Below are positions 5,938 through 64,000 of a stretch of 64,000 nt of DNA, in pieces (positions within the stretch are counted from its first letter, which is position 1; each line of letters opens with the position of its first letter). The notes under the pieces were generated by a model, which was given only the letters and a program-made list of their open reading frames with translations, was not told the origin of the DNA and made no database searches. The translations under genes were made by a program, and so were the position numbers. This DNA is from Candidatus Moraniibacteriota bacterium. GTDB lineage: Bacteria > Patescibacteriota > Minisyncoccia > Moranbacterales > UBA1568. Location of the stretch: the NCBI GenBank assembly GCA_016182385.1, contig JACPGV010000011.1, positions 22,888 through 86,887 of the forward strand, written 5' to 3'.

Positions 5938-5956
5938 AAAAAATATCTCTAAAAAA

Positions 5957-39361: not shown

Positions 39362-40159
39362 TTACTTTTCAAAACTCTGTAAATATTCTGGAAGTTTCAA
39401 AATCCATTTCGCTTGTTCCGGATAAAATAAAAACCTCTCGACATCTTTTGCTGCCTGTTCCAGATTGCTCTTTCTCGCCTGCTGTGTCAAAAATTCTACC
39501 AACATATGACGATTCGTAATATCAAGCTTCTTTTCTTTAAAAAGAGCATAGTTCGGCTCCAAATCCTTTTGACTCAAGAACCATACCAAATCATAAAAAT
39601 CGCGTCCTTTTTGATATGGACGAAAAATAATAGCAACGACTTTTTGAGCGAAAAGTGTTTCCAGAGAATTGACCAACAAAGGAAAACGCTCATTAAAACT
39701 ATCAGAGAATTTCGTTTCCGTGCGCGCTTTCTTGAACGGATTGAAATCAATTTCAAATTTGATAAGCATCTTTTCATTTTCTTGAACATTCAGACCGAAT
39801 TCCCATAAAACATCCTTGAATCTGAAATAAATAGTATGGATATTTTCAGTCGTTTTCGTACGCGCATCGACTTGAAATCCCTGCATATCCAACTTGTTTC
39901 TGATATCAGCCATCAATTCCTCGATATGAAATCCTTCTTTTTTTACCAGATCAAAATACAAATCTTCCGAAAAACGGTTGATTCCATATGCAAAACGAAG
40001 ACACGCACCACCCATGAATGAAATGCTGTCATTGAACTTGCTCAAAGAAAGTGCTTTGAGAATCTGCGTCTGCAAATATTCGAGTAAAATATTGCGATCC
40101 TGCCACGGAATATTTCTCTCTTCTGCGTATTTTTTAAAAAAGTCTTTACTCGGTAGCAT
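39362..40159 (-). CDS. AbiEii/AbiGii-family nucleotidyltransferase toxin (type IV TA toxin, DUF1814)
   Basis: GGACLRFAYGINRFSEDLYFD... matches the nucleotidyltransferase-fold core of AbiEii. Start set at MLPSKDFF (ATG at 40159), 8 nt after the AbiEi stop; the track's 40258 start overlaps AbiEi. Confidence 0.75.
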   Translation of the reverse strand: MLPSKDFFKKYAEERNIPWQDRNILLEYLQTQILKALSLSKFNDSISFMGGACLRFAYGINRFSEDLYFDLVKKEGFHIEELMADIRNKLDMQGFQVDARTKTTENIHTIYFRFKDVLWEFGLNVQENEKMLIKFEIDFNPFKKARTETKFSDSFNERFPLLVNSLETLFAQKVVAIIFRPYQKGRDFYDLVWFLSQKDLEPNYALFKEKKLDITNRHMLVEFLTQQARKSNLEQAAKDVERFLFYPEQAKWILKLPEYLQSFEK

Positions 40160-40769
40160 AATATTTGATAAAACTTTTAGTAAGAAGCGAAACCTTTTTA
40201 TTTTGAAAGGCCTCGGCAAATCCCAGTAATTTTTTCGTATCAAAAACAAAGTCCTCATTGAAACGATATCCTCGGAATTGTTCCGAATCTCCGTTTAAAA
40301 TATTGCGTTTCAAATAAAAAAAATCCACCAGTGCCTTTTCTGGCAATGCCATATTAAAGGAAATTTTCCCGTCCTTTTTCGTTTCATATCCGCCAAATGC
40401 GCTCTTTTTGATTTTCTGATAACTGAAACGTCCCAATTTCGTATCAAACTCTTTCGTTTTCCTTGTCGTCACCGAAGTCACCGTAAACACAGCCTCCGGA
40501 ATAATTCCATAAAAACTCAACGCCTTTTCCATGCTCACATAGGATGGTTGATACATTTTTGTCGCAAACCACACAGGATCCGCATTTTTTGCCTCCTCAG
40601 CGACAACATACATACCTCTTCTCAACATAATAAGATGACCCTTGTTAACCCAATTTTTCAGATTAACAAGCATGGTACTTGTGAACGCACCACCCAGAAC
40701 AAGCCTCAGTTCTTTCGTTTCAAAAAGCGGCAATTCTTCAACTTTTTTTCTAAATTCAAAATAATTCAT
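40146..40769 (-). CDS. AbiEi-family antitoxin/transcriptional regulator (type IV TA antitoxin)
   Basis: N-terminal wHTH-like region and the conserved PSYVSMEKALSFYGIIPE motif of AbiEi antitoxins; 207 aa; immediately upstream of AbiEii. Confidence 0.75.
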   Translation of the reverse strand: MNYFEFRKKVEELPLFETKELRLVLGGAFTSTMLVNLKNWVNKGHLIMLRRGMYVVAEEAKNADPVWFATKMYQPSYVSMEKALSFYGIIPEAVFTVTSVTTRKTKEFDTKLGRFSYQKIKKSAFGGYETKKDGKISFNMALPEKALVDFFYLKRNILNGDSEQFRGYRFNEDFVFDTKKLLGFAEAFQNKKVSLLTKSFIKYYATE

Positions 40770-41279: not shown

Positions 41280-43460
41280 TTACCGGTTAGATTTATATTG
41301 CCACCTCTTTCTCCACTCACTGGCAAGCAAAATAGAAAGAACAAAAAGACTGACTCCGGTAATCCACATACCGACATATAAGAGACGTGCCGGCAGGTAG
41401 TACAGGGAAACGTTTCCTCCCTTTCGATCACGATCTAATCTCCAGGCATTGGCATGCTGAATGCTGTTGTCCCGAGTCAATGAGACTTTGTTTCCAGCTA
41501 GATCAACATATTCCGCTCTCCAGAGAGAATCGTAGCGCTCATTCAAGAAAATAGTGGCGTCCTGCTTCATATCCACCACCGGTACCATAATTTCTCGTGG
41601 ATTTTTTCTCTGGTATGCCAGTTCTTCTATATTTTCACGTAGCGCCTGTACAGACTGCGAAAGTCCTTCTATTTTCATCGGAACAAATGGGGCATTGATC
41701 CCTACAAATACGTATGGAAACACCCGCTTCTCTTCCAAAGTATAGAGAGTAAAAAAATCATTCTCTTTTACTTTCTGCAACGCTCCAGTTCTTTCAAGGT
41801 ATTCCTTAGCTCCTTCAAATTCTTCTTGATTCTCCTTACGAGTATCCTTATGAAAAAACACATACTCAACCCCTAGAAGACCGTAGAGATCAGTTATCCA
41901 CTGCGGGTCATGCTGACTCTCAAACTCCGTAGCAAACATCCAATGAGGAATGTAGTAGTCATACAGCTCTACGTATTTTTTACTATACAAACGATACGCG
42001 ATATCGGGACCATTGACCTTCCAAGTAGGAAAATTCACTCTCCCGACGCTCGAACCAGGAGCGTACGGCAACATTGCAATCTTACTGTCCTTTTTACTTG
42101 ACTCAATGACTGAAGCGACATCATAATATGCCTGAGGAACCTCTACGAGAGCACTATACTTAGCCTTGGTATAGTCCTTGGCTTTCTGACCAGAAAGAGC
42201 AAAGCTCAATTTTGTCTGAAGGCCGCCTACGTAAAAAGGAAGCGCCAGAATAATCGTCATGAGAAGAAATGAGAGCATAAGGAAACGAGCATACTTCTTT
42301 CCTTCAAATGATTGAAGGAAAAGTAGAAGAAGTCCTGAAAGAAGAAATGGAGTTATCGTAGCCAGCTTATCCCAGCCACGCAAAGTATTGAATCCTGGCA
42401 GAGTGAATAGAAATTCGTTCATAGACTCAAATGGGAAACGCACTCGTGCCACCAGAGCCATGAAAATAAATGTGAGCATGAAAAAGGCACCGAATATCTT
42501 TTGGTCCCTCGAACTCCTTTTCCGAAAGAATCCATACAACGCCAAGAAAAAAGGAATGAAAGCTATGAAGGCTATCACTCTCTTTGCTTGAGAAAAATCT
42601 GGGTATGGAAAATTCATTGGATAATAGCGTTCCTGCTCACTCGTAGGAAGTAATCGAATCGTATCCGAAAAAGCATTCGACGTCTCCCTTAATCGCTCTG
42701 AAAGATCAACAAATTCTGAAGTATAAACTGCTTGTACGCCACCTCGTAGCTGAGGTATCTGTGGCAACAACCAGTAGGTGTTCATGAGAGCCGCTCCAAA
42801 AACAAGCATCCCTATTTTAAGCAAAGTCTGACGATCAAAAGGGATGGAACGGAAAAGAAACAGTGCGAGCGTAAGAAAAAAGAATAAGATACCAAGAGAC
42901 AGAGCAAAAGCCGGATTTCCAAAACTCGTCGAAGCAAGAAAAGCAACCCCCACAAAACCGTAGCTAAAAATTCTCTGAGATGATTCGAGAGCTTTGATAT
43001 ACATCCCTACCAGAAGAGGAATGAATATGTACAAGACCTGATACGAACTATACCCCCAAGCAGCAGTGAAGACATAGAGTGTATAGAGATTCGTAGCGTA
43101 AAAAAGTGCGGAAAGTGACCGTGTCAGTCCAGATGACCTCGAGAACACCAATGCACAAAATGACAGAAACGAAAAAAATGAACCAAGAAGGAATATTCCG
43201 ACATACCAAGAAAGTTGAGCCGTATCACTAATACCTAGTTGGTCAATAATGTAAAAGACGCCATAAAATAATGAAGCGCTGCCGAAAGCATCGTAATGAA
43301 AACGAACAAAATTTTCGGTCATGTTAATAGCCTGAATAACATCCCCGCCAAGCAAAATATGTCTCGCAGGAAAGATATTCATGAGAGTACATAAAACAAG
43401 AAGAAATACTCCTATTGTTTCCCATCGGTACCGAAGTAGAATGTGTCGTACTCTCTCCAT
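41280..43460 (-). CDS. YfhO-like GT-C-fold membrane glycosyltransferase (paralog 1)
   Basis: 726 aa. ~13 N-terminal TMs with an acidic GGDV motif in the first extracytoplasmic loop, a ~300 aa extracytoplasmic domain and a single C-terminal TM (LLYVGMWITGVSLFVLSILL); this is the topology of YfhO/ArnT-type GT-C enzymes. Confidence 0.5.
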   Translation of the reverse strand: MERVRHILLRYRWETIGVFLLVLCTLMNIFPARHILLGGDVIQAINMTENFVRFHYDAFGSASLFYGVFYIIDQLGISDTAQLSWYVGIFLLGSFFSFLSFCALVFSRSSGLTRSLSALFYATNLYTLYVFTAAWGYSSYQVLYIFIPLLVGMYIKALESSQRIFSYGFVGVAFLASTSFGNPAFALSLGILFFFLTLALFLFRSIPFDRQTLLKIGMLVFGAALMNTYWLLPQIPQLRGGVQAVYTSEFVDLSERLRETSNAFSDTIRLLPTSEQERYYPMNFPYPDFSQAKRVIAFIAFIPFFLALYGFFRKRSSRDQKIFGAFFMLTFIFMALVARVRFPFESMNEFLFTLPGFNTLRGWDKLATITPFLLSGLLLLFLQSFEGKKYARFLMLSFLLMTIILALPFYVGGLQTKLSFALSGQKAKDYTKAKYSALVEVPQAYYDVASVIESSKKDSKIAMLPYAPGSSVGRVNFPTWKVNGPDIAYRLYSKKYVELYDYYIPHWMFATEFESQHDPQWITDLYGLLGVEYVFFHKDTRKENQEEFEGAKEYLERTGALQKVKENDFFTLYTLEEKRVFPYVFVGINAPFVPMKIEGLSQSVQALRENIEELAYQRKNPREIMVPVVDMKQDATIFLNERYDSLWRAEYVDLAGNKVSLTRDNSIQHANAWRLDRDRKGGNVSLYYLPARLLYVGMWITGVSLFVLSILLASEWRKRWQYKSNR

Positions 43461-43468
43461 AACATTAC

Positions 43469-44998
43469 TTATCGTAATTTTGAAACACTGGCATGAACAG
43501 AAAACTCATTGAACCCGAAAAACCCTGATGATTTCTCCTCACCTACGTAAGTTGCTTTGACGTAGACTGTTTTCGCTACTCTGTTCCCTGGTAACGTCAA
43601 CAAAAACCGTACCCGCCCAGATGATTCCTCTACAAATGGAATTTCCTGCCAATGTTCCTTATCCAGAGAATACTCCAATTGAATTTCTGACAAATCATCG
43701 CCGTCCTGTTGTGCATCCAAAGCAAAAAATTCGAAGGGACGCCCTGTTTCAAATCGATACATGAGATACTCCCCTGTCTTCTGACTTCCTGTGATAATCT
43801 TCCTCTCCCTGTCGAAGATGATACTTTGACTCGCCTCGTAGAGATTATCATAATCAACTGGGTCGTGTCTCAATTGGAAAGCATAGAGAAGCTTCTTCCC
43901 TAAATCCTCCAACTTCGCTCCATCAGGAAAGCTATCCGCCCCATTCAACCGTGCCCGTTGGCCAATATGCACAAAAAGATCTCCCTTTTCCTTAAATTCT
44001 TTCGGGTCAACCGTCTTCTCCAATTCGCCTAAAGAAAAGAAGTTTTCTGGGTCTTTATCCTTTGGGCCAACAAAATTAAGAGCATACCAGCCGCCCTGTT
44101 TCAAAGGAAAAGAGAAAGGGAGTAGGAAATTACCAGAAAAAATTCTCATACCATTCAAAGCGTCCAATACGAAGGGTATCCTTTGAAGAGGAGCTGATTC
44201 TTTTTCTTTCGTTACACTATTGTAACGAAAGAGTTCAAAAGCATATTCTTGTCTCCCGCCACCATCTATTTTTCCTGAAAATTCGAGCGACCGAATAAAA
44301 TCACCGTCAGCCTGAAAAAGCCATTCTTTTTTCTGAGAGCTTTTATCTATATTATTTACTGAAAAAAGCTCTCGATGACTAGTCTCCGAGATACCATAAA
44401 AAGTAGGCATGAGACTGACTGCTTCAAAGCGAGTCTGCACTTCAAGCGGCGTGATATCAAAAGATTTTATGAAAACTTCTGGATCATACCATTCCATTTC
44501 TGAAACCTCAGAATTCTTTTTCAATCGAATAATAAGGTCCTGATACCTCCCAGGCGTGGAAAAGACTACTTCACGATATTGACCCTTTTCATCTGGTTCA
44601 AAAGTCCATGAGCTGATGGGCAGTATTTCATTTAGGGAAGATCGAGCCAATACCTCGACCTGTTCTTTATCCTTCGTACTCACATGAATGCCCAGGCGAA
44701 AAAAATCATTCGTTCGAGATTCGAAAAAATTCTCATAGATTTTCTCTGGGATTTTTTTAGTAAGATCGGGTCGAAAAACAAAGGCTGATTTTTCCTTCTT
44801 TGATTCAGGCTTCTTCACTACCTGATCAGGTGCTACAGCCTGATGCCAGAGGTAGGCGGTAAGAAAAATAAAAAGAATGAAGAAATAGCGAAAGTATCTC
44901 CCCAAAAAGACTCCCATTTTCCTAATCACTCCGTGAATTTCTTTCATGTTCTTCATTTTGGATATTTTATCAGTTCTGAGATGATTTGTCATGGTCAC
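43469..44998 (-). CDS. hypothetical membrane-anchored extracytoplasmic protein (509 aa)
   Basis: Single N-terminal TM (YFFILFIFLTAYLW), then a ~450 aa soluble domain; sandwiched between, and overlapping, the two YfhO-like paralogs. Confidence 0.45.
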   Translation of the reverse strand: MTMTNHLRTDKISKMKNMKEIHGVIRKMGVFLGRYFRYFFILFIFLTAYLWHQAVAPDQVVKKPESKKEKSAFVFRPDLTKKIPEKIYENFFESRTNDFFRLGIHVSTKDKEQVEVLARSSLNEILPISSWTFEPDEKGQYREVVFSTPGRYQDLIIRLKKNSEVSEMEWYDPEVFIKSFDITPLEVQTRFEAVSLMPTFYGISETSHRELFSVNNIDKSSQKKEWLFQADGDFIRSLEFSGKIDGGGRQEYAFELFRYNSVTKEKESAPLQRIPFVLDALNGMRIFSGNFLLPFSFPLKQGGWYALNFVGPKDKDPENFFSLGELEKTVDPKEFKEKGDLFVHIGQRARLNGADSFPDGAKLEDLGKKLLYAFQLRHDPVDYDNLYEASQSIIFDRERKIITGSQKTGEYLMYRFETGRPFEFFALDAQQDGDDLSEIQLEYSLDKEHWQEIPFVEESSGRVRFLLTLPGNRVAKTVYVKATYVGEEKSSGFFGFNEFSVHASVSKLR

Positions 44999-47471
44999 TT
45001 TTTTGCCTTTTTTCCTTTTTTAGAGCTCTTTTTACCAAAAGCAGCGAGTACCAAAGGAGACCGAGACCGGAAATAATTATCCCAATATATGAGACCCTCT
45101 GAGGCCAAAATTCTATAATCACTTCGACATCCTGAGTTTCATCTTTATTCTTCAGACAACTCTCAGACTGTTCCTGGCATATAGCATCTATATCAAGAAC
45201 CCAGGCGTTGGCGTAACCATTGACCACAAGTTGTCTATTCTTAGTATCGAGAGGTTCTTGAAACCACGTTTCAGAAAAGCGAGCCTCTACGAGATTATCA
45301 TTTTGAACGGTGTTAAAGAACTTTTTTGAGACAAAATCGATAGAAAATTTCTCGATAAAATCAATCTTCCCTCGATAGTCATCCCATTTTTTGTGAACAA
45401 TACTTTTTTCTTTTCCGTCTCCCAGCTCCGTGACACTCCCCTCGTTTACGAGCCTCACAAGTTCATCGCTATCAGCCTGAAAATATTTATTCTTTTCCAA
45501 TATCTTGTATTCCTTCAGTCGAGAGAGGAGTGACCCACGATCCTGATAAGAACTCTTTTTTTCCGCCAAGTATATGTTCCAATCTTTATGATACTGTTCG
45601 CTCAAAACCAGCACGACGTTCCCCTGTGCACCGTGCAAACGTACTCGATACTGCGTCGGATTGATTTTCTTGTACTCAACACTCGCCCCGGAGAAAATTC
45701 CTCCTCTGTCTATATCAGCATTTATCTCATTATCCTGAAACGAAACTTTCCGCTCAGCATGACGAATAGGCGAGTTATCAAGAAGTATTTGCGTTAATGG
45801 TGCGTCATCAAAGGTACCAATACTTTCGGCCGTATACAACTGTGGTAAAAATTCGTTTCGATCGACATACTGAATAGAGAGAAAACCCTCTTGAAAAGCC
45901 GGTACTGTATTCTTCACATAATAAACAATTTTGTTCATCAAGGAAGCGTCTTCGAATATGAAACCAACTGCATGATTCGAGAGACTCCCGAGAACCTTGT
46001 CATACCCCAAGTTATAGTTTGTGTACAAGAAGTTGTAGATAATTGGCCCAAAGAATCCCCACTGGGTATTGAGGTACGTCAGATCACTGTTGGGATAGAA
46101 CGTCCGGACGTTCATTTTTTGGTAATCAATAAACTCGCGCACCTTGTAATACTCATTTGGGATATGAAAACCACGTTGCTGAATGTTCGTATATTGGTTG
46201 ATCCCGTTGAAATTTTTATAGTACTCCCCGTTCCAGTATGGGTATCCGACATAGATCGTCACAACAAGTATAAGAGAGCTAAAAAAGAACCGTTTTCTTG
46301 GAATTTGTTCGACAAAGAAAAACAAAAGGAGCGCATAAAATACCGAGAGGAAAAAAACTGCTCCCGCTGTCGTTCGCAAAAAGGCTAACAAAGGCACACT
46401 CGCAACAAAGTGCTCATACATCTGCCCAAAAGGCTTATTTGGTCCCGCAGCAAAAAAGAGATAGATGACAAGAAGAAGCCAAACGATGATCTCGTCTCTC
46501 TTATCTACATTGTGTTCGGAGTGAATAATAAGCAGTCGTGCAAAGATGATAAAGACAAAGAAATAGCTCAGGATCAAAATGAGAGCACTCGAATTATAGG
46601 AAAGAACATCCAGATGATTCAGAAAGATAGAATCTTGATGAAGCTTCAATATCTTATCCATGGTATCCACGCCGAAATTCATCATCTTGCCAATATCCTT
46701 GTACCCCGACTTCACTTTTACCCCATAGTCGATGGGATCATAGTTTAAGGTGAAATTTGCTAAAGGCAAAAATAAATAGGCCGAAAGAACAAAGGCGAGT
46801 GAAAATTTTATGAACACCTTTCGCAGCTCTACACCAGTAATTTTTTGAAGACTCCAATTAGCAAAGAAAATAATTGCTGAGATGAGAAAAAGATGAAAAA
46901 GGTACTTCGGGTTCGGTAGATCTAGAGAGCAAAAAGCCAGTATCACATTTAACCAAAGTGCCGTTCCGATGGTGACGTCTTTCTCCTTGACGATCCTAAA
47001 AATGAAATAGATGAACCAAGGAGTAAAAGCGTACACAAATATGTAATGGTAGGCATTGAGAAGAGCTGGGGAGAGGAGATAGAACACGATCGGCACCAAG
47101 AGTTCTAGTCGTTGCGCCTTTGGGGAAAAAAGCTGAGCCAGTTTGTAAATACCAAATCCCGCAATCAACGTTAGAAAAAATAATAAGACTGCAGAAATAA
47201 AAAGGATATTACCCGTAAAAAGCTCGGCCACCCAGTACATGATGTAAAAAACATAGTAGTTCACGGCGAAGTATTGGCCATTTTTCATCTCTATCCACTG
47301 ATAGAGATATTTTTCCAGCCCCTCACTGTTGAATGGTATGAGTACATCGCCCCCGATAGAAAGACGCCCCCAAGTATAAAAAGCTGGTAACAGTGCTAAC
47401 CCAAAAATAACCAGTTCGGGAGAGTACCGAACGAGCAACCTCAAAAATGTCTTCCAAATCTCTCGGTTCAT
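44970..47471 (-). CDS. YfhO-like GT-C-fold membrane glycosyltransferase (paralog 2)
   Basis: 833 aa; same architecture as 41280..43460. The N-termini are alignable (LLVRYSPELVIFGLALLPAFYTWGRLSIGGDV vs ILLRYRWETIGVFLLVLCTLMNIFPARHILLGGDV); C-terminal TM IGIIISGLGLLWYSLLLV. Confidence 0.5.
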   Translation of the reverse strand: MNREIWKTFLRLLVRYSPELVIFGLALLPAFYTWGRLSIGGDVLIPFNSEGLEKYLYQWIEMKNGQYFAVNYYVFYIMYWVAELFTGNILFISAVLLFFLTLIAGFGIYKLAQLFSPKAQRLELLVPIVFYLLSPALLNAYHYIFVYAFTPWFIYFIFRIVKEKDVTIGTALWLNVILAFCSLDLPNPKYLFHLFLISAIIFFANWSLQKITGVELRKVFIKFSLAFVLSAYLFLPLANFTLNYDPIDYGVKVKSGYKDIGKMMNFGVDTMDKILKLHQDSIFLNHLDVLSYNSSALILILSYFFVFIIFARLLIIHSEHNVDKRDEIIVWLLLVIYLFFAAGPNKPFGQMYEHFVASVPLLAFLRTTAGAVFFLSVFYALLLFFFVEQIPRKRFFFSSLILVVTIYVGYPYWNGEYYKNFNGINQYTNIQQRGFHIPNEYYKVREFIDYQKMNVRTFYPNSDLTYLNTQWGFFGPIIYNFLYTNYNLGYDKVLGSLSNHAVGFIFEDASLMNKIVYYVKNTVPAFQEGFLSIQYVDRNEFLPQLYTAESIGTFDDAPLTQILLDNSPIRHAERKVSFQDNEINADIDRGGIFSGASVEYKKINPTQYRVRLHGAQGNVVLVLSEQYHKDWNIYLAEKKSSYQDRGSLLSRLKEYKILEKNKYFQADSDELVRLVNEGSVTELGDGKEKSIVHKKWDDYRGKIDFIEKFSIDFVSKKFFNTVQNDNLVEARFSETWFQEPLDTKNRQLVVNGYANAWVLDIDAICQEQSESCLKNKDETQDVEVIIEFWPQRVSYIGIIISGLGLLWYSLLLVKRALKKEKRQKSDHDKSSQN

Positions 47472-56276: not shown

Positions 56277-57320
56277 TTAGTAATGGTAATCCGTTTCGCC
56301 CTTGAGATCATACTTCATCATCAACTTCACAAGTTCCTCAAAACCCATTTTCGGTCTCCAGCTAAGTTTCCTCTGGGCCTTGGAATTATCTCCGATCAAG
56401 AGATCTACTTCTGCCGGTCGAAAATACATTGGGTCAATTTCCACCAACACTTTGCCCGTAGTTTTGTCCTTACCCTTCTCATTAATCCCTTCACCCTCCC
56501 ATACCAAATCATAACCTGCCTCTTTGAAGGCAAGCTCACAAAACTCCCGTACTGTATGGGTCTCACCAGTTGAAATCACAAAATCTTCTGGCTTCTCCTG
56601 CTGAAGCATCAGCCACATCGCCTCTACATAGTCTTTAGCATAACCCCAATCACGCTTGGCATCGAGATTCCCCAGATAAATTCTCTCTTGTGTTCCATTT
56701 TTAATACCAGCAACACCAGTGGTAATTTTTCTCGTTACAAAAATTTTTCCTCGACGTGGCGACTCATGATTAAATAAAATACCATTACAAGCAAAAAGAT
56801 TATATGCCTCACGATAATTCACCACAATCCAATAAGCATAAAGCTTGGCGACCCCATAGGGAGAGCGTGGGTAAAATGGAGTAGTCTCCTTCTGGGGTGT
56901 TTCCTGGACCTTGCCGAACAATTCCGAAGTCGAAGCCTGATAGAACTTCGTTTTGATGCCAGTCTCTTTGATAGCATCTAGGAAACGAAGCGTGCCCAGG
57001 GCATCAACTTCAGCAGTATATTCTGGAACCTGAAAAGAAATATGCACATGTGACTGCGCGGCAAGATTATATATTTCATCAGGCTTGATCATCTCAAGCA
57101 AACGGTTCAAGTTGCTTGAATCCGTCAAATCACCGTAGTGGAGATGAATCCTCGACTTTTCCGAATGTGACCCTGAAAACATATGGTCAATCCGTTCGGT
57201 ATTGAAGATCGAAGCCGCTCGACGTAAACCGTGCACTTCATAACCTTTTTCCAAAAGAAGTTCTGCCAAATAAGACCCGTCCTGACCTGTAATTCCAGTA
57301 ATAAGTGCTTTTTTTATCAT
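56277..57320 (-). CDS. gmd: GDP-mannose 4,6-dehydratase (copy 1, canonical)
   Basis: [31 protein letters not shown] ... [12 protein letters not shown] ... NHESPRRG ... C-terminal tail; full-length 347 aa, closely alignable with canonical bacterial Gmd. Confidence 0.9.
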
Positions 57321-57826
57321 AAATTTTTTAAGATATTTTTTACTTGGCTGTATCTTAGAACGTGATCCGCATAATGTTCCCGCGTTACAAGTTCTTTTAT
57401 CTCAAACTTCTTCCAATATCGATAGAAAAATGAGTACGCTTTAAAACTCATACCTGGATTGATATAACAATCGGTTACAAGATGAAAAAAAGCCCCGATA
57501 GTTACCCCCCACATCAAAGCTCGTGACTCCCCCGAGACCTCAATACTCACTATAACGATTATCAATAGTATAACGTATTCCCACCCGTGAAACAACACGT
57601 AAATCTTGTCATTTTTAAAAAATTGATACCCTTTTAGAAAATGGGTGAGTCGGAAATTTCTTCCAAAAGCGATAAAATAATCAATAAAATGATCCACATC
57701 AATCAAAACGCCGCCAAAAAACGCCGCCAAAAAAGAAATGGGCTGATAACCAAAGAAAAACCACGTAATAACTCCGGCTAAAAGAGAAAGAAAGAAATGA
57801 AGAAACAGATGAAACATTAAACTCAT
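57317..57826 (-). CDS. hypothetical polytopic membrane protein (possible membrane-bound metal-dependent hydrolase, YdjM-like)
   Basis: 169 aa with ~5 TMs and conserved His/Asp (LHFFLS...[11 protein letters not shown]...FHGWEY...FHLVTDCY). Confidence 0.35.
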
Positions 57827-57862: not shown

Positions 57863-59572
57863 CTATCGATTGACCGCGCTATCCTCAAGACGCACGGCAT
57901 CCTTTTCCTTGTCTACAGAGGTTTTTGATTTGAAAAAATGACCAGTAAGTTTGCCAAAAACATTCTTCCAAAATTTCTTTGAAGTAAAGCTCACATTTGT
58001 TTTTGTTTGATTTGGATCAAAGTCAAGCAAATGCCCTATAAGTCTCTTTCCTGCTGAATAAAAAAACTTCAAATCATCAATGCTACGAATACTTATAATT
58101 TTTCGAAAAATGAATCGTGGAGAGAAAAAGGCCGAATAAAGATCCTGGGTCAAACTCAAAAGCTGTTCCTGAGTCAAGGGAATCTTCATAACTGATCCAC
58201 GCATATCATAATCATCATAATCTTCCGTTACCAAGAGTCCTTTTTCCTTACACTCTTTCCACAGAGGGGTTCCCGGATACGGAACAACGATCGTCGCCTG
58301 CATGGTGGCAAAATATCCCTTCTTAAAACAGTATTTAGCTACGGCAATGGTCCGTTTCGAATCTTCATAATCTTCCCACGGATATCCAAGCATAATGGTA
58401 GCATGCGGCTCAAGACCAGCCTTTGAAGCCATGCGAGCGCCATTAATAGTGTCAGCTTCTTTTGTTCCTTTATCAAGCTTATCAAGTGTTTTTTGGTTTC
58501 CCGACTCCATTCCATACAAAATAAAACGAAACCCTGCCTTCGCCATGAGATTATAATATTCTTGATTCAAAGCATTAAACCGCATATTACAACCATAAAT
58601 AACCTTTTTGTTGTAACCACTCTCAATCAACAGCTCACAAAATTTCTTGAGTTTTGGACCAATAAAAAGTGTGCCGGCATCATCAAAAATTTCCCGAATA
58701 CCATATTTATCCACTACATGTTTCACCTCTGCAAACAAGCGTTCGGGAGAAAAGCTCCGATACGTACCAAGAGGATTGATCGTATGATCCCATACACAGA
58801 ACGTGCAACGATTCCACCAACAATCACGGCCACTGTACATATACGTTCCTGGTGTATATTTGTAATTTCCGTTTTCATAGGCGTACAATTCCCAACGAGT
58901 CAAATCCCGATCAATAAAAGGCAAAGCATCGAGAGCATGTCGCACCCAATCCGGACCAGAACTATAAATTTTTTCACCTGATGGCAAAGTTGTGGTTTCT
59001 TTTGGAGTGACTTTTATCTCAGTATTTCCTTCACGCCAATATACTCCCCCCTCAAGTTCTTCTCCTCGATAAATATGATTCAAGAGATTTACAATCAAAA
59101 AATCATAATCACCGCCTCGTAAAATATAGTCTATCTTGCTATTTTCAAATTGCTCAAGCGGCATGAAAGTAACATGATCTCCCACCCAAATAAGTTTGAG
59201 GTGCGGCAATTTTTCTTTCAAATCATTAATTTGCTTCCAATGTCTTTTAATAACCGGTGATTTTGATTCTACAAGTAAATACTCGGCCCCCGTGGCGCGA
59301 AGCTCATCAACCCACTGATCATATTCTTTATGCTCAGAAATACCATCCATCCAATAAACTTTATACCCTTGATCCTGAAGATACGAGGCGGCATAAGCAG
59401 GCACCATCGGATAAATGTATGTGGGGGCATTGAAATATTGAAACTGCCGGTTCTGACTCAGAAGTGCTACTCCTTTCTCTGATTTTATAGGCGGATATCC
59501 CACCGCCACCACTATTTCTTTTGGAAGAGGTATCAGATTTTTCTTTTCTTCTTTTGTCTCGCCAGTGTTCAT
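57863..59572 (-). CDS. B12-binding domain radical SAM protein (class B radical SAM, putative methyltransferase)
   Basis: N-terminal Rossmann-like cobalamin-binding region, Cys cluster SGRDCWWNRCTFCVWD, and a downstream radical-SAM TIM-barrel (GYPWE... glycine-rich SAM motifs); ~570 aa from MNTGETKEE (ATG at 59572). The track's 59692 start overlaps the ferredoxin gene. Confidence 0.7.
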   Translation of the reverse strand: MNTGETKEEKKNLIPLPKEIVVAVGYPPIKSEKGVALLSQNRQFQYFNAPTYIYPMVPAYAASYLQDQGYKVYWMDGISEHKEYDQWVDELRATGAEYLLVESKSPVIKRHWKQINDLKEKLPHLKLIWVGDHVTFMPLEQFENSKIDYILRGGDYDFLIVNLLNHIYRGEELEGGVYWREGNTEIKVTPKETTTLPSGEKIYSSGPDWVRHALDALPFIDRDLTRWELYAYENGNYKYTPGTYMYSGRDCWWNRCTFCVWDHTINPLGTYRSFSPERLFAEVKHVVDKYGIREIFDDAGTLFIGPKLKKFCELLIESGYNKKVIYGCNMRFNALNQEYYNLMAKAGFRFILYGMESGNQKTLDKLDKGTKEADTINGARMASKAGLEPHATIMLGYPWEDYEDSKRTIAVAKYCFKKGYFATMQATIVVPYPGTPLWKECKEKGLLVTEDYDDYDMRGSVMKIPLTQEQLLSLTQDLYSAFFSPRFIFRKIISIRSIDDLKFFYSAGKRLIGHLLDFDPNQTKTNVSFTSKKFWKNVFGKLTGHFFKSKTSVDKEKDAVRLEDSAVNR

Positions 59573-59585
59573 ATTGAATTTGATG

Positions 59586-59846
59586 TTATTTTTTTGGATA
59601 AATTTTTTCACCGCCCTGATATACTTCGATCGCCAACACCGAACAAGATTGAGCCGCTTCAATAATTTTTTCAAGACTATCCCAGTCGCCATCTTTTATA
59701 ATGGCAATATTTTTTTCATCAAGATCAAAAGTTGACGGACTATACACGACACACGTAGCGGCACCGACACACTTTTCTCTCAAAATACGAATTTCAATAT
59801 CGCCTTTTTTTACTATCTGGAGAGCCTCATCTTGTTGCATAAACAA
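59586..59846 (-). CDS. ferredoxin (single-cluster Fe-S, Fer4-like)
   Basis: 86 aa; CVGAATCVVYSPSTFDL ... AAQSCSVLAIEV, the C-x5-C...C-(P) pattern of mono-cluster [3Fe-4S]/[4Fe-4S] ferredoxins; 13 nt upstream of the radical SAM gene. Confidence 0.55.
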   Translation of the reverse strand: MFMQQDEALQIVKKGDIEIRILREKCVGAATCVVYSPSTFDLDEKNIAIIKDGDWDSLEKIIEAAQSCSVLAIEVYQGGEKIYPKK

Positions 59847-59931: not shown

Positions 59932-60909
59932 CTAACGAAGCTTGCTTTTTAAGTTTCGCACCAACAAAAATCCAATAAGAAAATAAAAGCCGTAAACCAA
60001 ATGAGTGAAGAATATATAGTAAAGAGCATTGAAAAGAATGAAAGTATTTTTCTCAAACCGATACATATCCAGAAAAGATAGGAAAAGAGCTCCCCCGTAT
60101 AAAAACCACCCTATTTCATACCAAAAAAGAAAATGCGGGAAAAGAAAAATCGATCCAGTCCCTACTGTCACAAAAAGAAAAAAGAATGAGGGAATAAAAT
60201 ATTTGATACGCAATGACGTTTCCGGAAATTTTTTCGCGAAAAAACCTCGGTGCAGTCCATACCCATGCACTTGTTTCATATGTCGAAAAAATCCCTCTCG
60301 TCGATGATGATAAACATGAAGCGAAGGATCATACAGGATCTTTCCTTTTAATTTTTTTATAATATTCAAACACAGTTTCGTATCCTCTCCAGGCCAAAAT
60401 CCACAATCAAATCCATCAACATCAGCAAACGCCTGCTTTCGAATAGAAAGATTGACGCTCGGCCAATCGTCAACTAATCGTTTCTTTCCAACAGGCACAT
60501 AACGTTCTGGGGAACCACCGGAGAGAGAACTTAAAAAAACCGCCCCAGACACTTTCTGCCAAAAACTATCATGGGAAGGAGTAATAGCCGGTCCTCCAAC
60601 AGCGATAATAGAAGGATCGGAAAAATCATGATCCAAAATATCCAAAAAATTTTTTTCTGGATAAGCATCGTCATCGACAAAAATAAGTATTTCGCCCACC
60701 GCATCACGTATGGCGAGTGTTCGCTTCTCAGCCGGTCCGCAATGCCCGGTAGCTATTTGTCTTGTTTTTTGCCATGTTTCAGAAGTCGCCTTATCGGGAT
60801 AAATGATAATTTCATAATCATCACGAGATATCTCGAGTGTTTTTGGTACAGCCTCACGAATATAATCATTTATCTCCTTTACTGGAATAATAAAACTGTA
60901 TCGTATCAT
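59932..60909 (-). CDS. glycosyltransferase family 2 (GT-A) with C-terminal TMs
   Basis: FIIPVKEINDYIREAV, the FVDDDAYP D-x-D region and four C-terminal TMs; 325 aa. Confidence 0.75.
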   Translation of the reverse strand: MIRYSFIIPVKEINDYIREAVPKTLEISRDDYEIIIYPDKATSETWQKTRQIATGHCGPAEKRTLAIRDAVGEILIFVDDDAYPEKNFLDILDHDFSDPSIIAVGGPAITPSHDSFWQKVSGAVFLSSLSGGSPERYVPVGKKRLVDDWPSVNLSIRKQAFADVDGFDCGFWPGEDTKLCLNIIKKLKGKILYDPSLHVYHHRREGFFRHMKQVHGYGLHRGFFAKKFPETSLRIKYFIPSFFFLFVTVGTGSIFLFPHFLFWYEIGWFLYGGALFLSFLDMYRFEKNTFILFNALYYIFFTHLVYGFYFLIGFLLVRNLKSKLR

Positions 60910-60911
60910 AG

Positions 60912-61868
60912 CTACACAATGGCAAGTTTATGACGAAAATAATCAACTGTTTTTTGAAGCCCTTCATCAAGTTGCACTTTCGGCTCCCACCCATCAAGCT
61001 TTTCTTTCGCAAGAGCAATATCCGGATTTCGTTGTTTCGGATCGTCGGGCGGAAGATCTTTGTATACAATTCTGCTTTTACTTTCCGGAATAAAATGAAG
61101 GATTTTCTCAGCTAACTCTTTTATGGTGAATTCATTCGGATTGCCGATATTTACAGGACCGACAAATCCATCTTGATTCATCATTCTCATCATACCCTCA
61201 ATCAAATCATCTACATACTGAAAACTTCTTGTTTGAGATCCATCACCATAAATGGTAATATCTTCATTTTTTAAAGCCTGAACAATAAAATTTGACACTA
61301 CCCGACCATCATAAGGATGCATATTTGGTCCATACGTATTAAAAATACGAATAACACGAATATCTACTTTATTTTGACGATAGTAATCAAAAAAAAGCGT
61401 TTCCGCGCAACGTTTTCCTTCATCATAACAGGAACGGAAACCGACGGGATTAACATGTCCCCAATACGATTCTTTCTGCGGTGTGATTTCAGGATCGCCA
61501 TACACTTCCGAAGTAGAGGCTTGAAGAATACGTGCTTTGGTACGTTTTGCCAAACCAAGCATATTAATCGCTCCATGAACAGATGTTTTCGTAGTTTGCA
61601 CCGGATCAAATTGATAGTGAATAGGTGAGGCAGGACAAGCAAGGTTATAAATTTGATCCACTTCTACATACAGAGGAAAAGTAACGTCATGACGCATCAA
61701 ATCAAAACGCGGACAAGTCAAAATATCTAAAATATTATTCTTGCTTCCAGTAAAAAAATTATCAACACACAATACATCGTGTCCCTCTTTCAAAAGACGA
61801 CGACACAAATGAGAGCCTAAAAACCCCGCTCCACCTGTAACCAAAATTTTTTTTTCCGTCATATACAA
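60912..61868 (-). CDS. UDP-glucuronate decarboxylase (UDP-xylose synthase)
   Basis: [40 protein letters not shown] and the YDEGKR catalytic region, alignable end-to-end with UXS/ArnA-decarboxylase-type SDRs; 318 aa. Confidence 0.85.
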
Positions 61869-61907: not shown

Positions 61908-61980
61908 AATGTACAACGGGCGATTAATGACTTCGTTGTGAATACGAGCGATTGCGTCATGACCTTATTATAGTTCATTT
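61908..61980 (-). pseudogene. remnant 3' end of a GtrB-like GT2 gene (duplicated fragment)
   Basis: Minus-strand reading gives ...GHDAIARIHNEVINRPLYIVREKINFR*, a near copy of the C-terminus (IARIHNEVINRPLYIVREEINGIEQ) of the GT2 gene at 63633. 41/45 nt are identical to 63666..63710. Confidence 0.5.
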
Positions 61981-61997
61981 TCTGATGAGATTCCAAT

Positions 61998-62264
61998 TTA
62001 TACCATATCTGAGCCTATATCTATACTTTTGACACTTTCTTTTCTCTGCCTTATACCACACTTGAAGTATTTGAGAGAGGCCGTCGACCGTTCAGAGGAT
62101 AGCCCTCTTTCTTTTTTCCTGTTTTTACTGTCTTTATCTACGAAGATATTGAATGACTGGTTCCGAAAACCTTCACAAAAACTTTTTACTCCGATCTGCT
62201 GTTTGAAAAAATCGACCAACTCTTTTTTATATTTTGAAGGAGTTTCTACCAATCCGTATTCCAT
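61998..62264 (-). CDS. hypothetical protein (88 aa), possibly a gene fragment
   Basis: ORF with a protein-like N-terminus (MEYGLVETPSKYKKELVDFFKQQIG) and a low-complexity C-terminus; lies inside the repeat-flanked insert. Confidence 0.2.
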   Translation of the reverse strand: MEYGLVETPSKYKKELVDFFKQQIGVKSFCEGFRNQSFNIFVDKDSKNRKKERGLSSERSTASLKYFKCGIRQRKESVKSIDIGSDMV

Positions 62265-62353: not shown

Positions 62354-63523
62354 TCAGTAAAAATTATCCACCGTCAATAATTTGACTTTCGCTTCGGAAT
62401 ATCTGTTCTTGAAAGCCTTGTTGATAGCTTTTCGCTTGTATTTAATCTCTACTCCGATAATTTCGCTACCTTTTTCCAGTACAACATCTATCTCGGAACC
62501 CTGCTTCGTTCTCCAATAATAAAATTTAAAGCCTCTATCAGAATAGCTGTCCTGTTTTATCAATTCACTGATTATGAAATTTTCAAACAAAGATCCTTTA
62601 TCCACTCTCGAATTCAAATCGGAAAAATCCTCAATCAAGGCATTTCTCACGCCAGTATCGTAGAAAAATATCTTTGCTGATTTCGATATTTCATCTCTTT
62701 TCCTTTTTGAATACGGATATAATCGAAACAAAATGAAGCTCTGCTCAAAAATCTCAATATACCTTTTGACAGTCCGCTGGTCAGTTTTCAAACTACTGGC
62801 CAATTCAGAATAATTTATAAGATTGCCAATCTGGAAAGCCAGAAGTTTCAATAAATTCTTAGCAAGCTTCTTATCCTCAATCAAATGTAATTCGAGAATG
62901 TCCTTGAAAATCAGACTATCCACAAAATTCAACAAGTATTTCTCATCATTCGGATATTTGATAAAATGAGGATACTGTCCATACACCAGAACACTATCCA
63001 GTATGTTCTTTATATCAAACGCATAGAATTGCTCTTTTGGGTTATCTTTTTCATCATCAATAATTTTTTCAAGAATGTTAAAATTCAAACTCTTCTCAAT
63101 ACCCTTCTGGTTCAGATATTCAGAAAAAGTAAGCGGGTAAATATTATAATCGATTTTTCTCCCCGCGAGACTCTCACCCGTCTTGTTTTTTATATGAAAA
63201 GAAGATGATCCGGTGATAATAATCCTCAGATTATTCATCTGATCATACAATATCTTTATAGCTCTTCCGGGATTGTCAAGCAGATGAATCTCATCGATGA
63301 TAATCTCTTTTGCCTTCTTATTTATAATTGTTTTATATGTCTCTATATCATATGTCTCCAATATCTTCTTGATCGGCTCATTATCCACAAGAAAATACTC
63401 CGCGTTCGGAAATATCTTTTTGACTATAGTTGTCTTTCCAGCCTGTCTCGATCCAAGCAAAATAAGTACTTGTTCGTACTTTTTAAAGTGTTCACTCATT
63501 TGGAAATCAAGATGTCTTTTCAT
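62354..63523 (-). CDS. AAA-family ATPase with C-terminal DUF4143 domain
   Basis: Walker A LLGSRQAGKTT, Walker B IIIDEIH; C-terminal region typical of the widespread archaeal/bacterial DUF4143 ATPases; 389 aa. Confidence 0.8.
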   Translation of the reverse strand: MKRHLDFQMSEHFKKYEQVLILLGSRQAGKTTIVKKIFPNAEYFLVDNEPIKKILETYDIETYKTIINKKAKEIIIDEIHLLDNPGRAIKILYDQMNNLRIIITGSSSFHIKNKTGESLAGRKIDYNIYPLTFSEYLNQKGIEKSLNFNILEKIIDDEKDNPKEQFYAFDIKNILDSVLVYGQYPHFIKYPNDEKYLLNFVDSLIFKDILELHLIEDKKLAKNLLKLLAFQIGNLINYSELASSLKTDQRTVKRYIEIFEQSFILFRLYPYSKRKRDEISKSAKIFFYDTGVRNALIEDFSDLNSRVDKGSLFENFIISELIKQDSYSDRGFKFYYWRTKQGSEIDVVLEKGSEIIGVEIKYKRKAINKAFKNRYSEAKVKLLTVDNFY

Positions 63524-63632
63524 AAAAAATATGTCTTTTCGTGTATTATATGTATAAAAAGATATATCTAATTATACATAATAAGGAATATTTGTCAAAT
63601 TCAAACAATACGACAGTCCGTCACTAACGATC

Positions 63633-64000
63633 CTATTGTTCAATACCATTTATCTCCTCCCGCACGATGTAGAGCGGGCGATTGATGACTTCGTTGTGAA
63701 TACGAGCGATATAAAGAGTAATAAAACCAAGAGAAATGAGAACGATGCCGATCAGAAACATATTACTGACACCAAGGATGGCAATGGGCGTAAACATGCC
63801 AGGTGCAAAAAACCAATCCGCAACAAGCATCATCGCAAGCAAGAGTCCGCTTATGAGCGTAATACAAATACCCAAATATCCGGCTAAACGAAGAGGGAGA
63901 AGTGAAAACGATGTAAGACTATTTATCGCCAAACGAACAAGCTTTACATAAGAATATCCAGCATTGCCGTAGAGACGCTCTGGAGCCACGAATTCTATCT
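63633..64000 (-). CDS. glycosyltransferase family 2, GtrB/CsbB/DPM1-like polyprenyl-phosphate sugar transferase; C-terminal ~120 aa only (gene continues beyond window end)
   Basis: Two C-terminal TMs (LLPLRLAGYLGICITLISGLLLAMMLV; ILGVSNMFLIGIVLISLGFITLY) followed by IARIHNEVINRPLYIV, the C-terminal layout of GtrB-type GT2 enzymes. The reading frame is open to the window edge. Confidence 0.55.
   Translation of the reverse strand, partial: IEFVAPERLYGNAGYSYVKLVRLAINSLTSFSLLPLRLAGYLGICITLISGLLLAMMLVADWFFAPGMFTPIAILGVSNMFLIGIVLISLGFITLYIARIHNEVINRPLYIVREEINGIEQ

Follow-up and report, generated by a model that had tools for sequence, protein, structure and literature searches.

Within a 64,000-nucleotide stretch of contig JACPGV010000011.1 (assembly GCA_016182385.1, Candidatus Moraniibacteriota bacterium), which is referred to in its full length as the window, a gene for a radical S-adenosylmethionine (SAM) enzyme lies directly downstream of a gene for a small ferredoxin. 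This radical SAM enzyme, abbreviated rSAM, is a member of an undescribed and unusually conserved subfamily of class-B-type architecture, which is shared by bacteria of the candidate phyla radiation (CPR) and some archaea. The role favored here, to which a probability of roughly 0.55 is assigned, is a radical tailoring step inside a lipid-linked glycan cassette, with the ferredoxin serving as redox partner. This proposal builds on direct observations of the intact gene, its conserved cluster motif, the fold class of its product, the cysteine pattern of the ferredoxin, and the synteny of related loci.

The radical SAM enzyme and its relatives

All genes of the rSAM region are located on the minus strand. 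The gene and its parts are as follows.

57863..59572, minus strand: rSAM gene, class-B-type architecture, defined by ORF (open reading frame), start codon, and homologue alignment
59063..59515, minus strand: N-terminal Rossmann-like (cobalamin-binding-type) domain, approximately residues 20-170, from the structural model, a sub-threshold Pfam match, and motifs
58796..58822, minus strand: codons of the [4Fe-4S] cluster motif, C251-WWNR-C256-TF-C259 (Cx4Cx2C), read directly from the sequence
58178..58846, minus strand: radical SAM barrel core, approximately residues 243-465, from Pfam, alignments with MgmA (9ccb) and AprD4 (6fd2), and Foldseek
57866..58177, minus strand: C-terminal helical extension, approximately residues 466-569, from model helices with lower pLDDT (predicted local distance difference test) values

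The start codon was placed at the ATG at 59572 by homologue alignment and by two independent gene calls on contigs of the same organism, giving a product of 569 amino acids (aa) plus stop; the mechanical ORF, 57863..59692, is longer than the called gene and overlaps the ferredoxin gene. More than 6200 homologues were retrieved, the closest 120 of which were used for motif counts, and because these closest database clusters cover 93-100% of the length of the enzyme, at 70-89% identity, a frameshift in the gene can be dismissed. Contigs assembled from two further sequencing runs encode an identical protein. The frame is thus intact over its full length.

A first-pass annotation of the same DNA had read the cluster motif as CWWNRCTFC, that is, Cx4Cx2C, and this reading is correct in the translation, in the homologues, and by comparison with OxsB, an enzyme of oxetanocin A biosynthesis. 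The motif is CWWNRCTFC in 119 of the 120 closest homologues and CWLNRCTFC in the remaining one, and its three cysteines are invariant in an alignment of 44 rSAM sequences. In HMMER alignments it is matched without gaps to CDYSRCTFC of OxsB, whose motif has been described as CX4CX2C in place of CX3CX2C (PMC9204698). Its recurrence throughout the closest homologues marks the Cx4Cx2C spacing as a trait of the family and excludes a sequencing error. An interpretation of the gene as a pseudogene or assembly artefact, with the extra residue of the motif as an error, has the noncanonical spacing in its favor and nothing else; set against the full-length frame, the identical protein from two further runs, the motif identity in 119 of 120 homologues, and the same spacing in a solved enzyme, its probability is negligible. 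A sequencing error or pseudogene is accordingly ruled out by homologue conservation and the independent contigs.

A profile of distant relatives retrieved approximately 5900 proteins of about 485 aa each. Among 120 proteins of this wider clade, the first cysteine loop is of the Cx4 type in 60, Cx7 in 56, and Cx3 in 4, and across the wider clade this loop can be as short as 3 or as long as 17 residues, with the CxxC part and the residues flanking the motif remaining fixed. A QNR loop is found in 119 of the 120, and GDHVT and TGGDYD motifs are also carried. No further invariant set of cysteines, as expected for an auxiliary cluster of the SPASM or twitch type, was found in the rSAM alignment, and such a cluster was rejected; within the CPR branch C441 alone is invariant, C312 and C328 come close to it, and none of the three is kept in the wider clade. 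The final 50-80 residues of the C-terminal extension are absent from archaeal-type homologues, and the alignment of the window enzyme with a 487-aa Methanoperedens protein stops at residue 518. No hydrophobic transmembrane segment was found in the protein.

The Pfam Radical_SAM profile (PF04055) matches residues 250-409 at 54.1 bits (cut-off 29.5), and the beta-alpha barrel core predicted by AlphaFold2 (AF2) is matched by radical SAM structures in Foldseek. By its cysteine motif, above-threshold profile, and barrel fold, the gene product is a member of the radical SAM superfamily, and cleavage of SAM to the 5'-deoxyadenosyl radical is its predicted activity.

Variation at the cluster site was observed in several relatives. 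Several homologues of 665-972 aa, namely P0122, P0123, P0124, P0126, P0127, and P0360, carry a large insertion next to the third cluster cysteine (CTF-C…intein…HN-C), and P0360 contains Pfam LAGLIDADG and intein-splicing domains; important proteins are usually invaded by inteins at their most conserved site. Two full-length relatives with 33-35% identity, P0140 and P0149, lack all three cluster cysteines (for example, RGSLYNSYNS) and are probably catalytically dead paralogues.

The AF2 model, computed from 44 sequences, has a pLDDT of 77.5 and a predicted template modelling score (pTM) of 0.82, and comprises a Rossmann-like N-terminal domain with five beta-alpha units, followed by the barrel core and C-terminal helices; pLDDT falls below 50 in the cluster loop. 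In a Foldseek search against PDB, MgmA, AprD4, TsrM, OxsB, CysS, and TokK rank first (E 5e-15 to 3e-10), and the best 16 PDB matches are all class B enzymes or AprD4. The designation as a B12-binding class B enzyme in the first-pass annotation is therefore upheld in part: the architecture of a Rossmann-like domain joined to a radical SAM barrel is of the class B type and the Radical_SAM profile exceeds its cut-off, but the Pfam B12-binding profile (PF02310) reaches only 24.9 bits (E 1.9e-5, residues 53-154) against a cut-off of 32.1, so that the B12 label rests on a sub-threshold match and the fold.

In solved class B enzymes, the relevant features are a Gly-Gly pocket motif on strand 4 and a Gly-Glu pair at the start of helix 5, and DxHxxG is not needed, the cobalamin being bound His-off (PMC9204698). 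The DxHxxG-like motif, which the first-pass annotation had suggested inspecting, is for this reason uninformative as a test of B12 binding. When the window enzyme is aligned with HpnJ-like proteins and further class B representatives, its strand 3 retains x-T/S-P; strand 4 reads V-G131-D132-H133, compared with V-G-T-H in HpnJ-like proteins or G-G-P-H in others; and helix 5 begins with G153-G154-D155-Y-D-F, compared with GEYDF or GEGE, with Glu replaced by Asp. An invariant and family-specific loop, LLSQNRQFQ, occupies the beta1-alpha1 position that corresponds to the 'His loop' of other enzymes. As judged from the alignment, the N-terminal domain is kept in register; two of its positions that face the cobalamin have Asp in place of Gly or Glu, and its cobalamin-domain motifs appear to be kept about as well as in HpnJ-like proteins. 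Alignment and model are compatible with cobalamin binding and fall short of proof.

Comparison with curated families places HpnJ (TIGR03471) as the best NCBIfam match, at 142.7 bits against a cut-off of 577.6, followed by BchE at 93.7; the class B methylase families and AprD4 score below these two, and every NCBIfam score lies far under its own cut-off. Among 10 graded relatives drawn from a 50%-identity representative library, HpnJ is the best match for nine, the tenth being near-tied with BchE, and scores rise to 470 bits. Membership in the HpnJ or BchE families was rejected, given a score far under the cut-off and the lack of a hopanoid context. The CPR bacteria and archaea hosting this family are not known to produce hopanoids. 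The rSAM clade appears to branch beside HpnJ-like proteins, not within HpnJ itself. Residues 52-494 of the window enzyme match profile positions 31-445 of 472, the two-domain architecture is the same, and the gene is found beside that of a membrane-associated glycosyltransferase of family 2 (GT2), as HpnI is with HpnJ. The differences are an identity of about 30% and, in HpnJ-like proteins, a Cx3Cx2C motif and the lack of the QNRQFQ loop. For HpnJ, a ring contraction of a lipid-bound hexosamine has been proposed, with no methylation (PMC13459092, PMC9204698), and HpnJ, Fom3, and MoeK5 are grouped together in a sequence network (PMC9204698).

Among solved class B enzymes, the Cx4Cx2C motif is shared by OxsB alone (PDB 5UL2, 5UL3, 5UL4). 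This enzyme depends on cobalamin, contracts a sugar ring without methylating it, and is matched by the model in Foldseek with E 4e-12. Its sequence match is marginal (E 0.014) and confined to the radical SAM core, and it differs in its length of 744 aa, in a radical SAM motif that begins about 60 residues further in, in its genomic context, in its soluble nucleotide substrate, and in its partner, the phosphohydrolase OxsA. The best PDB matches by sequence are MgmA, the glutamine C-methyltransferase of methyl-coenzyme M reductase (PDB 9CCB), and AprD4 (PDB 6FD2), with E 1.6e-11 and 6.9e-6, respectively; both are also the best fold matches, with E 5.5e-15 and 1.4e-14 and a TM-score of about 0.65 on target length. 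The two are only 14-17% identical to the window enzyme over the structural alignment, lack the Cx4 spacing, the QNRQFQ loop, and a ferredoxin partner, and act on other substrates, with MgmA methylating a protein and AprD4 dehydrating a soluble aminoglycoside. Another radical SAM enzyme, calditol synthase (Cds) of Sulfolobus, turns the hexose head group of a lipid into a carbocycle (PMC13459092). Judged by its description, it represents an archaeal example of the same logic. Cds homologues have been reported mainly from acidophiles. For the nearest non-identical rSAM clusters, look-up of the cluster members returned only generic names, and no paper on this family was found in the literature searched on the themes of CPR radical SAM enzymes, ferredoxins, and glycosyltransferases.

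The ferredoxin and the conserved glycosyltransferase cassette

The gene partners that recur beside rSAM in other genomes are represented in the window by the following features.

59586..59840, minus strand: mono-cluster ferredoxin, 84 aa, Pfam Fer4_15 and Fer4_13, ATG start
59932..60909, minus strand: GT2 glycosyltransferase 'GT2b', 325 aa, Pfam Glycos_transf_2 and Glyco_trans_2_3
63633..64000, minus strand: C-terminal end of 'GT2a', a PgfS/ArnC-like polyprenyl-phosphate GT2, whose gene leaves the window

The TAA stop codon of the ferredoxin gene (59588-59586) is followed by exactly 13 nucleotides (CATCAAATTCAAT) and then by the rSAM ATG, so the distance given in the first-pass annotation is exact; an in-frame TTG at 59846 would give a ferredoxin of 86 aa. 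The protein matches Fer4_15 at 31.3 bits (cut-off 22.4) and Fer4_13 at 30.2 bits (cut-off 24.5). It has three cysteines in total, arranged as C24-x2-Ala27-x2-C30 … C66-Ser, and in alignment with Desulfovibrio africanus Fd I, Rhodopseudomonas palustris 4id8, and Desulfovibrio gigas Fd II, Ala27 is found at the position of the second cluster cysteine. The CxxAxxC pattern is present in 54 of 55 syntenic ferredoxins, 49 of which contain exactly three cysteines, together with a conserved G-x-K-x-Y/W-P tail. This ligand pattern is that of the [3Fe-4S] type, which is the cluster type predicted from it. The likeness to [3Fe-4S] mono-cluster ferredoxins such as D. gigas Fd II and the cytochrome P450-linked 4ID8 includes the same Pfam families and the CxxXxxC…C(P) arrangement. 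The ferredoxin of the window differs from them in the conserved C-terminal tail and in a last ligand followed by Ser instead of Pro, and it differs from P450-linked ferredoxins in having a radical SAM enzyme, not a P450, as partner.

In a scan of one genome per species, at least 507 genomes were found to contain the rSAM gene, and 80 loci were fetched. The lineages named in the locus titles include WWE3, Roizmanbacteria, Microgenomates, Gottesmanbacteria, Collierbacteria, Saccharibacteria, and 'Patescibacteria group'; the other names attached to many third-party assemblies were not trusted, because these loci share the synteny of the CPR loci and their enzymes are 58-88% identical to that of the window. 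Synteny was counted in 70 distinct loci with at least 1.5 kb of upstream sequence. The most constant neighbor of rSAM is a GT2b homologue, located upstream on the same strand in 64 of the 70 loci, and the ferredoxin is present in 50, within 300 nucleotides in 41. Clustering of the neighboring genes revealed a recurrent order: a PMT_2/PMT glycosyltransferase of the GT-C type (~540 aa), a Polysacc_synt flippase of the Wzx type (~425 aa), a GT2 (~270 aa), a further GT2 with membrane segments (~340 aa), the ferredoxin, and rSAM. In three-component glycosylation of the Gtr/Arn/Pgf type, genes for a polyprenyl-phosphate GT2, a flippase, and a GT-C transferase occur together. As possible counterparts, PMT_2 GT-C, flippase, and two GT2 genes recur upstream of the ferredoxin–rSAM pair, with a flippase of the Wzx type, not the GtrA type.

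Four further neighbors, by contrast, are sporadic. When any tblastn match in a locus is counted, Gmd is present in 19 of 85 loci, UXS in 28, the C-methyltransferase in 8, and a family 4 glycosyltransferase (GT4) in 7, at varying distance and mostly with low identity. A 169-aa protein family follows in 17 loci, about a fifth, and is thus a facultative member of the cassette. In the same loci, identity to the window proteins is 57-88% for rSAM, 34-77% for the ferredoxin, and mostly 31-44% for GT2b. In some CPR genomes an extra gene is inserted between ferredoxin and rSAM, such as a DIT1_PvcA-family gene (L004:5597-6961) or a family of about 310 aa with a faint Glyco_hydro_42-like match (family 16; loci L043, L045, L047, L051, L053, and L056); these intervening genes may be lineage-specific accessory steps of the same cassette.

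The cassette is also found outside the CPR. A protein of Candidatus Methanoperedens (P0405) shares 53% identity with the window enzyme over 497 residues. At its locus, L086, the ferredoxin is absent and the genes are arranged as Polysacc_synt – GT2 – GT2 – rSAM – GT2. The first four genes of this arrangement recur in the same order in L089 and L090, one being a Shapirobacteria contig in which TPR and MFS genes are inserted on the opposite strand and the other a further long contig. In a fourth locus, rSAM is accompanied by Glycos_transf_4 (polyprenyl-phosphate sugar-phosphate transferase), another GT2, and a PMT_2 protein, and the order in a Thermofilum locus is GT2, a LAGLIDADG endonuclease gene, and rSAM. 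The identity and the gene order of the Methanoperedens copy imply a transfer of the whole cassette between domains. From the archaeal-type loci, the constant core can be described as GT2b plus rSAM, usually with the flippase and GT2a, to which the ferredoxin and the extension of 50-80 residues are additions of the CPR branch. The near-constancy of GT2b, the sporadic occurrence of Gmd and UXS, and the archaeal recurrence together identify a membrane-associated glycosyltransferase cassette as the constant context of the enzyme. As further observations on these loci, a second B12-binding radical SAM gene is located 3.4 kb downstream in L086, and the endonuclease gene of the Thermofilum contig is a free-standing LAGLIDADG/NUMOD3 ORF directly upstream of rSAM (L088:3991-5175).

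Neighboring genes in the window

The genes surrounding the cassette in the window belong to a larger glycan operon, of which the following features adjoin it.

60912..61868, minus strand: UXS-like short-chain dehydrogenase/reductase (SDR), 318 aa by ORF and 316 aa as called, Pfam GDP_Man_Dehyd and Epimerase
57317..57826, minus strand: 169-aa helical membrane protein, whose stop overlaps the Gmd start by 4 nucleotides
56277..57320, minus strand: Gmd, TIGR01472 at 583 bits
54999..56249, minus strand: TylC3-type nucleoside diphosphate-hexose C-methyltransferase, with Methyltransf_13, _23, and _14 domains, adjoining Gmd and a Gmd-like reductase
61967..61996, minus strand: promoter-like site TTGGAA-18-TATAAT, 10/12 in a consensus scan, about 100 nucleotides upstream of the UXS start

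The position of rSAM between GT2/UXS and Gmd, as given in the first-pass annotation, was borne out, with the addition that the gene of the 169-aa membrane protein, which had gone unmentioned, also intervenes before Gmd. Downstream of Gmd are found the C-methyltransferase, the Gmd-like reductase, and a GT4; the place of the C-methyltransferase beside Gmd and the reductase suggests a C-methyl-branched 6-deoxyhexose made through ordinary SAM chemistry, independently of the rSAM enzyme. A close homologue of the UXS gene at the same position occurs only in L006 (84%).

The 169-aa protein is 100% identical to a protein of a Candidatus Moranbacteria metagenome-assembled genome, so that the window can be assigned to a CPR bacterium, in agreement with the CPR-like host proposed from the sequence. 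Its model is all-helical (pLDDT 95.1), no similar solved structure was found, and H10, D43, D45, H46, D49, H80, E83, H115, and D119 are invariant. Matches to YdjM (PF04307) are weak (E 0.06-0.11), and PF04307 appears in the annotation of two homologues. The protein may reasonably be guessed to be a metal-dependent hydrolase embedded in the membrane, which could trim a lipid-linked intermediate.

GT2b carries a C-terminal membrane segment, with hydrophobic segments at residues 237 and 298. Its best NCBIfam matches, all under their cut-offs, are MftF, EpsD, and AglG (dolichyl-phosphate-glucose glucuronosyltransferase), and comparison with solved structures matches only its generic GT-A N-terminus (TarS) and is silent on the acceptor. 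Only the last 118 codons of GT2a (63633..63989) lie within the window; they match contig L001 of the same organism, on which the complete GT2a is located at 4990-5940, preceded by a Polysacc_synt flippase gene. GT2a scores 240.6 bits with NCBIfam PgfS and 173.1 bits with ArnC, both under the cut-off.

In the window genome, the cassette is split, with an AAA_14/DUF4143 gene, an 88-aa ORF, and UXS between GT2a and GT2b–ferredoxin–rSAM. The AAA_14/DUF4143 ATPase gene (62354..63523, minus strand) and the 88-aa ORF (61998..62264, minus strand) constitute an insertion into a stretch that is contiguous in most other genomes, and the ATPase gene is preceded by a 12/12 promoter-like site (63598..63571). 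The promoter-like site at 61967..61996 could possibly, on weak evidence, be the start of a UXS–GT2b–ferredoxin–rSAM transcription unit; the promoter and terminator scan of the region gave counts that did not exceed those of shuffled sequence.

No GT-C with a Pfam match was found inside the window. At the far end of the operon, three ORFs without a Pfam match (41280..43460, 43469..44998, and 44970..47471, minus strand) encode proteins of 726, 509, and 833 aa, of which the two longest (726 and 833 aa), with their 9-10 hydrophobic segments, would fit unannotated GT-C-like transferases or polymerases. Just past the glycan operon lies a gene for an AbiEii-type nucleotidyltransferase toxin of a type IV toxin–antitoxin system (39362..40258, minus strand), overlapped by a 207-aa ORF without a Pfam match (40146..40769) that could be the antitoxin candidate. 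A Glycos_transf_4 gene (MraY/WecA-type polyprenyl-phosphate sugar-phosphate transferase; 29101..30210, minus strand) is located among housekeeping genes about 28 kb from the cassette, and from its presence it follows that the organism makes polyprenyl-phosphate-linked sugars.

Proposed role and biological significance

In the proposed pathway, GT2a and GT2b would build up a sugar on the cytoplasmic side of the membrane, attached to a lipid or a lipid carrier. The soluble rSAM enzyme would receive one electron from the ferredoxin at its Cx4Cx2C [4Fe-4S] cluster, which would cleave SAM, and the resulting 5'-deoxyadenosyl radical would abstract hydrogen from the lipid-linked sugar. The N-terminal Rossmann-like domain, probably holding cobalamin, would steer the substrate radical, and the modified unit would then be flipped and transferred outside the cell by the GT-C enzyme. 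Substrate, electron path, cobalamin use, and chemistry are the parts of this scheme that we infer.

Several points weigh against this scheme. The assignment of substrate and chemistry is based on gene neighborhood and distant homology, with no member of the family having been studied. The enzyme reaches a quarter of the HpnJ cut-off, no hopanoid genes (shc, hpnH, hpnG, hpnI, hpnK) were found in the Pfam and NCBIfam results for the scanned window ORFs and the looked-up loci, and the HpnJ reaction itself is only genetically inferred. With regard to cobalamin, the B12-binding match is sub-threshold, the Gly-Gly and Gly-Glu motifs have both been changed to G-D, and AprD4, which is not known to use cobalamin although its fold class is that of class B enzymes, is among the best structural matches. 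The cluster loop is modelled with low confidence. With regard to the redox partner, the ferredoxin is missing from 20 of the 70 loci and from all four archaeal-type loci examined, so that it is not obligatory for the family, and [3Fe-4S] ferredoxins, whose centers are usually not very reducing, tend to have a rather high potential for the reduction of a radical SAM cluster. For the latter reason, the role of dedicated electron donor that the first-pass annotation had proposed holds as far as a dedicated partner is concerned (50 of 70 loci, within 300 nucleotides in 41), while the donor role itself is not certain; the ferredoxin may act as donor, acceptor, or shuttle.

With respect to the reaction, a non-methylating skeletal change of the HpnJ, Cds, or OxsB kind, such as ring contraction or carbocycle formation, is ranked first as a tentative guess held at somewhat less than even odds. 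It takes this place because OxsB, which shares the Cx4Cx2C motif, is ring-contracting and non-methylating, and because HpnJ and Cds offer precedents: HpnI and HpnJ combine a GT2 and a class-B-type radical SAM enzyme on a lipid-bound sugar, Cds is a further radical SAM enzyme acting on a lipid-bound hexose, and for both a ring contraction has been proposed (PMC13459092, PMC9204698). Ranked a close second is a cobalamin-dependent radical C-methyltransferase comparable to MoeK5 (moenomycin), GenK, and Fom3, which would transfer a methyl group onto an unactivated carbon of the lipid-linked sugar, with methylcobalamin regenerated from SAM and the ferredoxin feeding both cluster and cobalamin. Most characterized class B enzymes are methylases; the Foldseek matches include the methylases MgmA, TsrM, CysS, and TokK; NCBIfam methylase families match at E 1e-12 to 1e-18; and the cobalamin-domain motifs are partly kept. 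The likeness to HpnJ is compatible with such a role, given the clustering of HpnJ with Fom3 and MoeK5 (PMC9204698), MoeK5 being a precedent on a lipid-linked sugar. However, the best curated matches, HpnJ and BchE, and the solved enzyme of the same spacing, OxsB, are non-methylases, so that methylation of unactivated carbons, as stated in the first-pass annotation, is not the default reading; the Gly-Glu motif contacting the cobalamin tail is altered; and a TylC3-type C-methyltransferase is already present in the operon alongside several class I methyltransferases, none of them a conserved partner. On methylation and B12, the earlier interpretation goes beyond the evidence.

A cobalamin-independent enzyme resembling AprD4, catalyzing a dehydration, epimerization, or oxidation of the sugar, is unlikely. 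In place of cobalamin, the ligand of its degenerate B12-like domain would be the substrate, the lipid carrier, or a partner protein, which would fit organisms without B12 synthesis, and CPR bacteria generally lack cobalamin synthesis. It draws on AprD4 as second-best match by both sequence and structure, on the sub-threshold B12-binding profile and the changes from G-G and G-E to G-D, on the invariant family-specific LLSQNRQFQ loop, which suggests a new binding function, and on the [3Fe-4S] ferredoxin, which would be more plausible as a shuttle or acceptor in a redox-neutral or oxidative reaction. Yet the T-P of strand 3, the G-x-H of strand 4, and the G-[DE]-Y-D of helix 5 are retained in register with HpnJ-like and class B proteins, many homologues pass the Pfam B12-binding threshold in precomputed annotation, and hosts of the Methanoperedens type can make cobamides. 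Among the scanned window ORFs, no cobalamin uptake or remodelling genes were found, the 64 kb being a small part of the genome. More improbable still is an action of rSAM, by radical methylation or epimerization, on the guanosine or uridine diphosphate-linked sugar of the neighboring Gmd or UXS before transfer, a reading of the second step on the glycan that the first-pass annotation had suggested. The window itself invites it, since rSAM lies between UXS/GT2 on one side and Gmd, the C-methyltransferase, and the reductase-like SDR on the other, on one strand with tiny gaps, and Gmd-like genes occur within a few kb in L067, L051, L079, and L082; but Gmd, UXS, and the C-methyltransferase are sporadic partners next to a GT2b that is present in 64 of 70 loci, and the archaeal cassette keeps flippase–GT2–GT2–rSAM with different sugar-nucleotide genes, so this step was set aside in favor of the tailoring of a lipid-linked glycan.

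The envelopes of CPR bacteria, organisms of very small genome size that depend on other cells, are poorly known. Over the 80 related genomes covered, rSAM is retained at 57-88% identity, always within this cassette, whereas GT2b has drifted to about 35%; together with an archaeal copy at 53%, this indicates a surface-modification step that is under strong constraint and probably important. It is conceivable, though doubtful at present, that an unrecognised surface-glycan or glycolipid pathway is common to much of the CPR (507 or more species-level genomes) and to several archaeal lineages. In this pathway, a radical SAM enzyme that relies on scavenged cobalamin and, in the CPR, is fed by its own [3Fe-4S] ferredoxin would turn a lipid-linked hexose into a ring-contracted, carbocyclic, or C-branched sugar of an unusual kind. 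If this is true, it would represent a new enzyme reaction, a new envelope component, and a concrete B12 dependency of host-dependent organisms. The cassette also provides a testable link between CPR physiology and the external supply of cobalamin. The four to six genes form a defined set for co-expression to find the product, with the ferredoxin as a natural redox partner of the kind often lacking in in vitro work on radical SAM enzymes. Radical SAM enzymology, in turn, gains a large clade with first loops from Cx4 to Cx17 and altered cobalamin motifs, situated between HpnJ-like proteins and the rest of class B.

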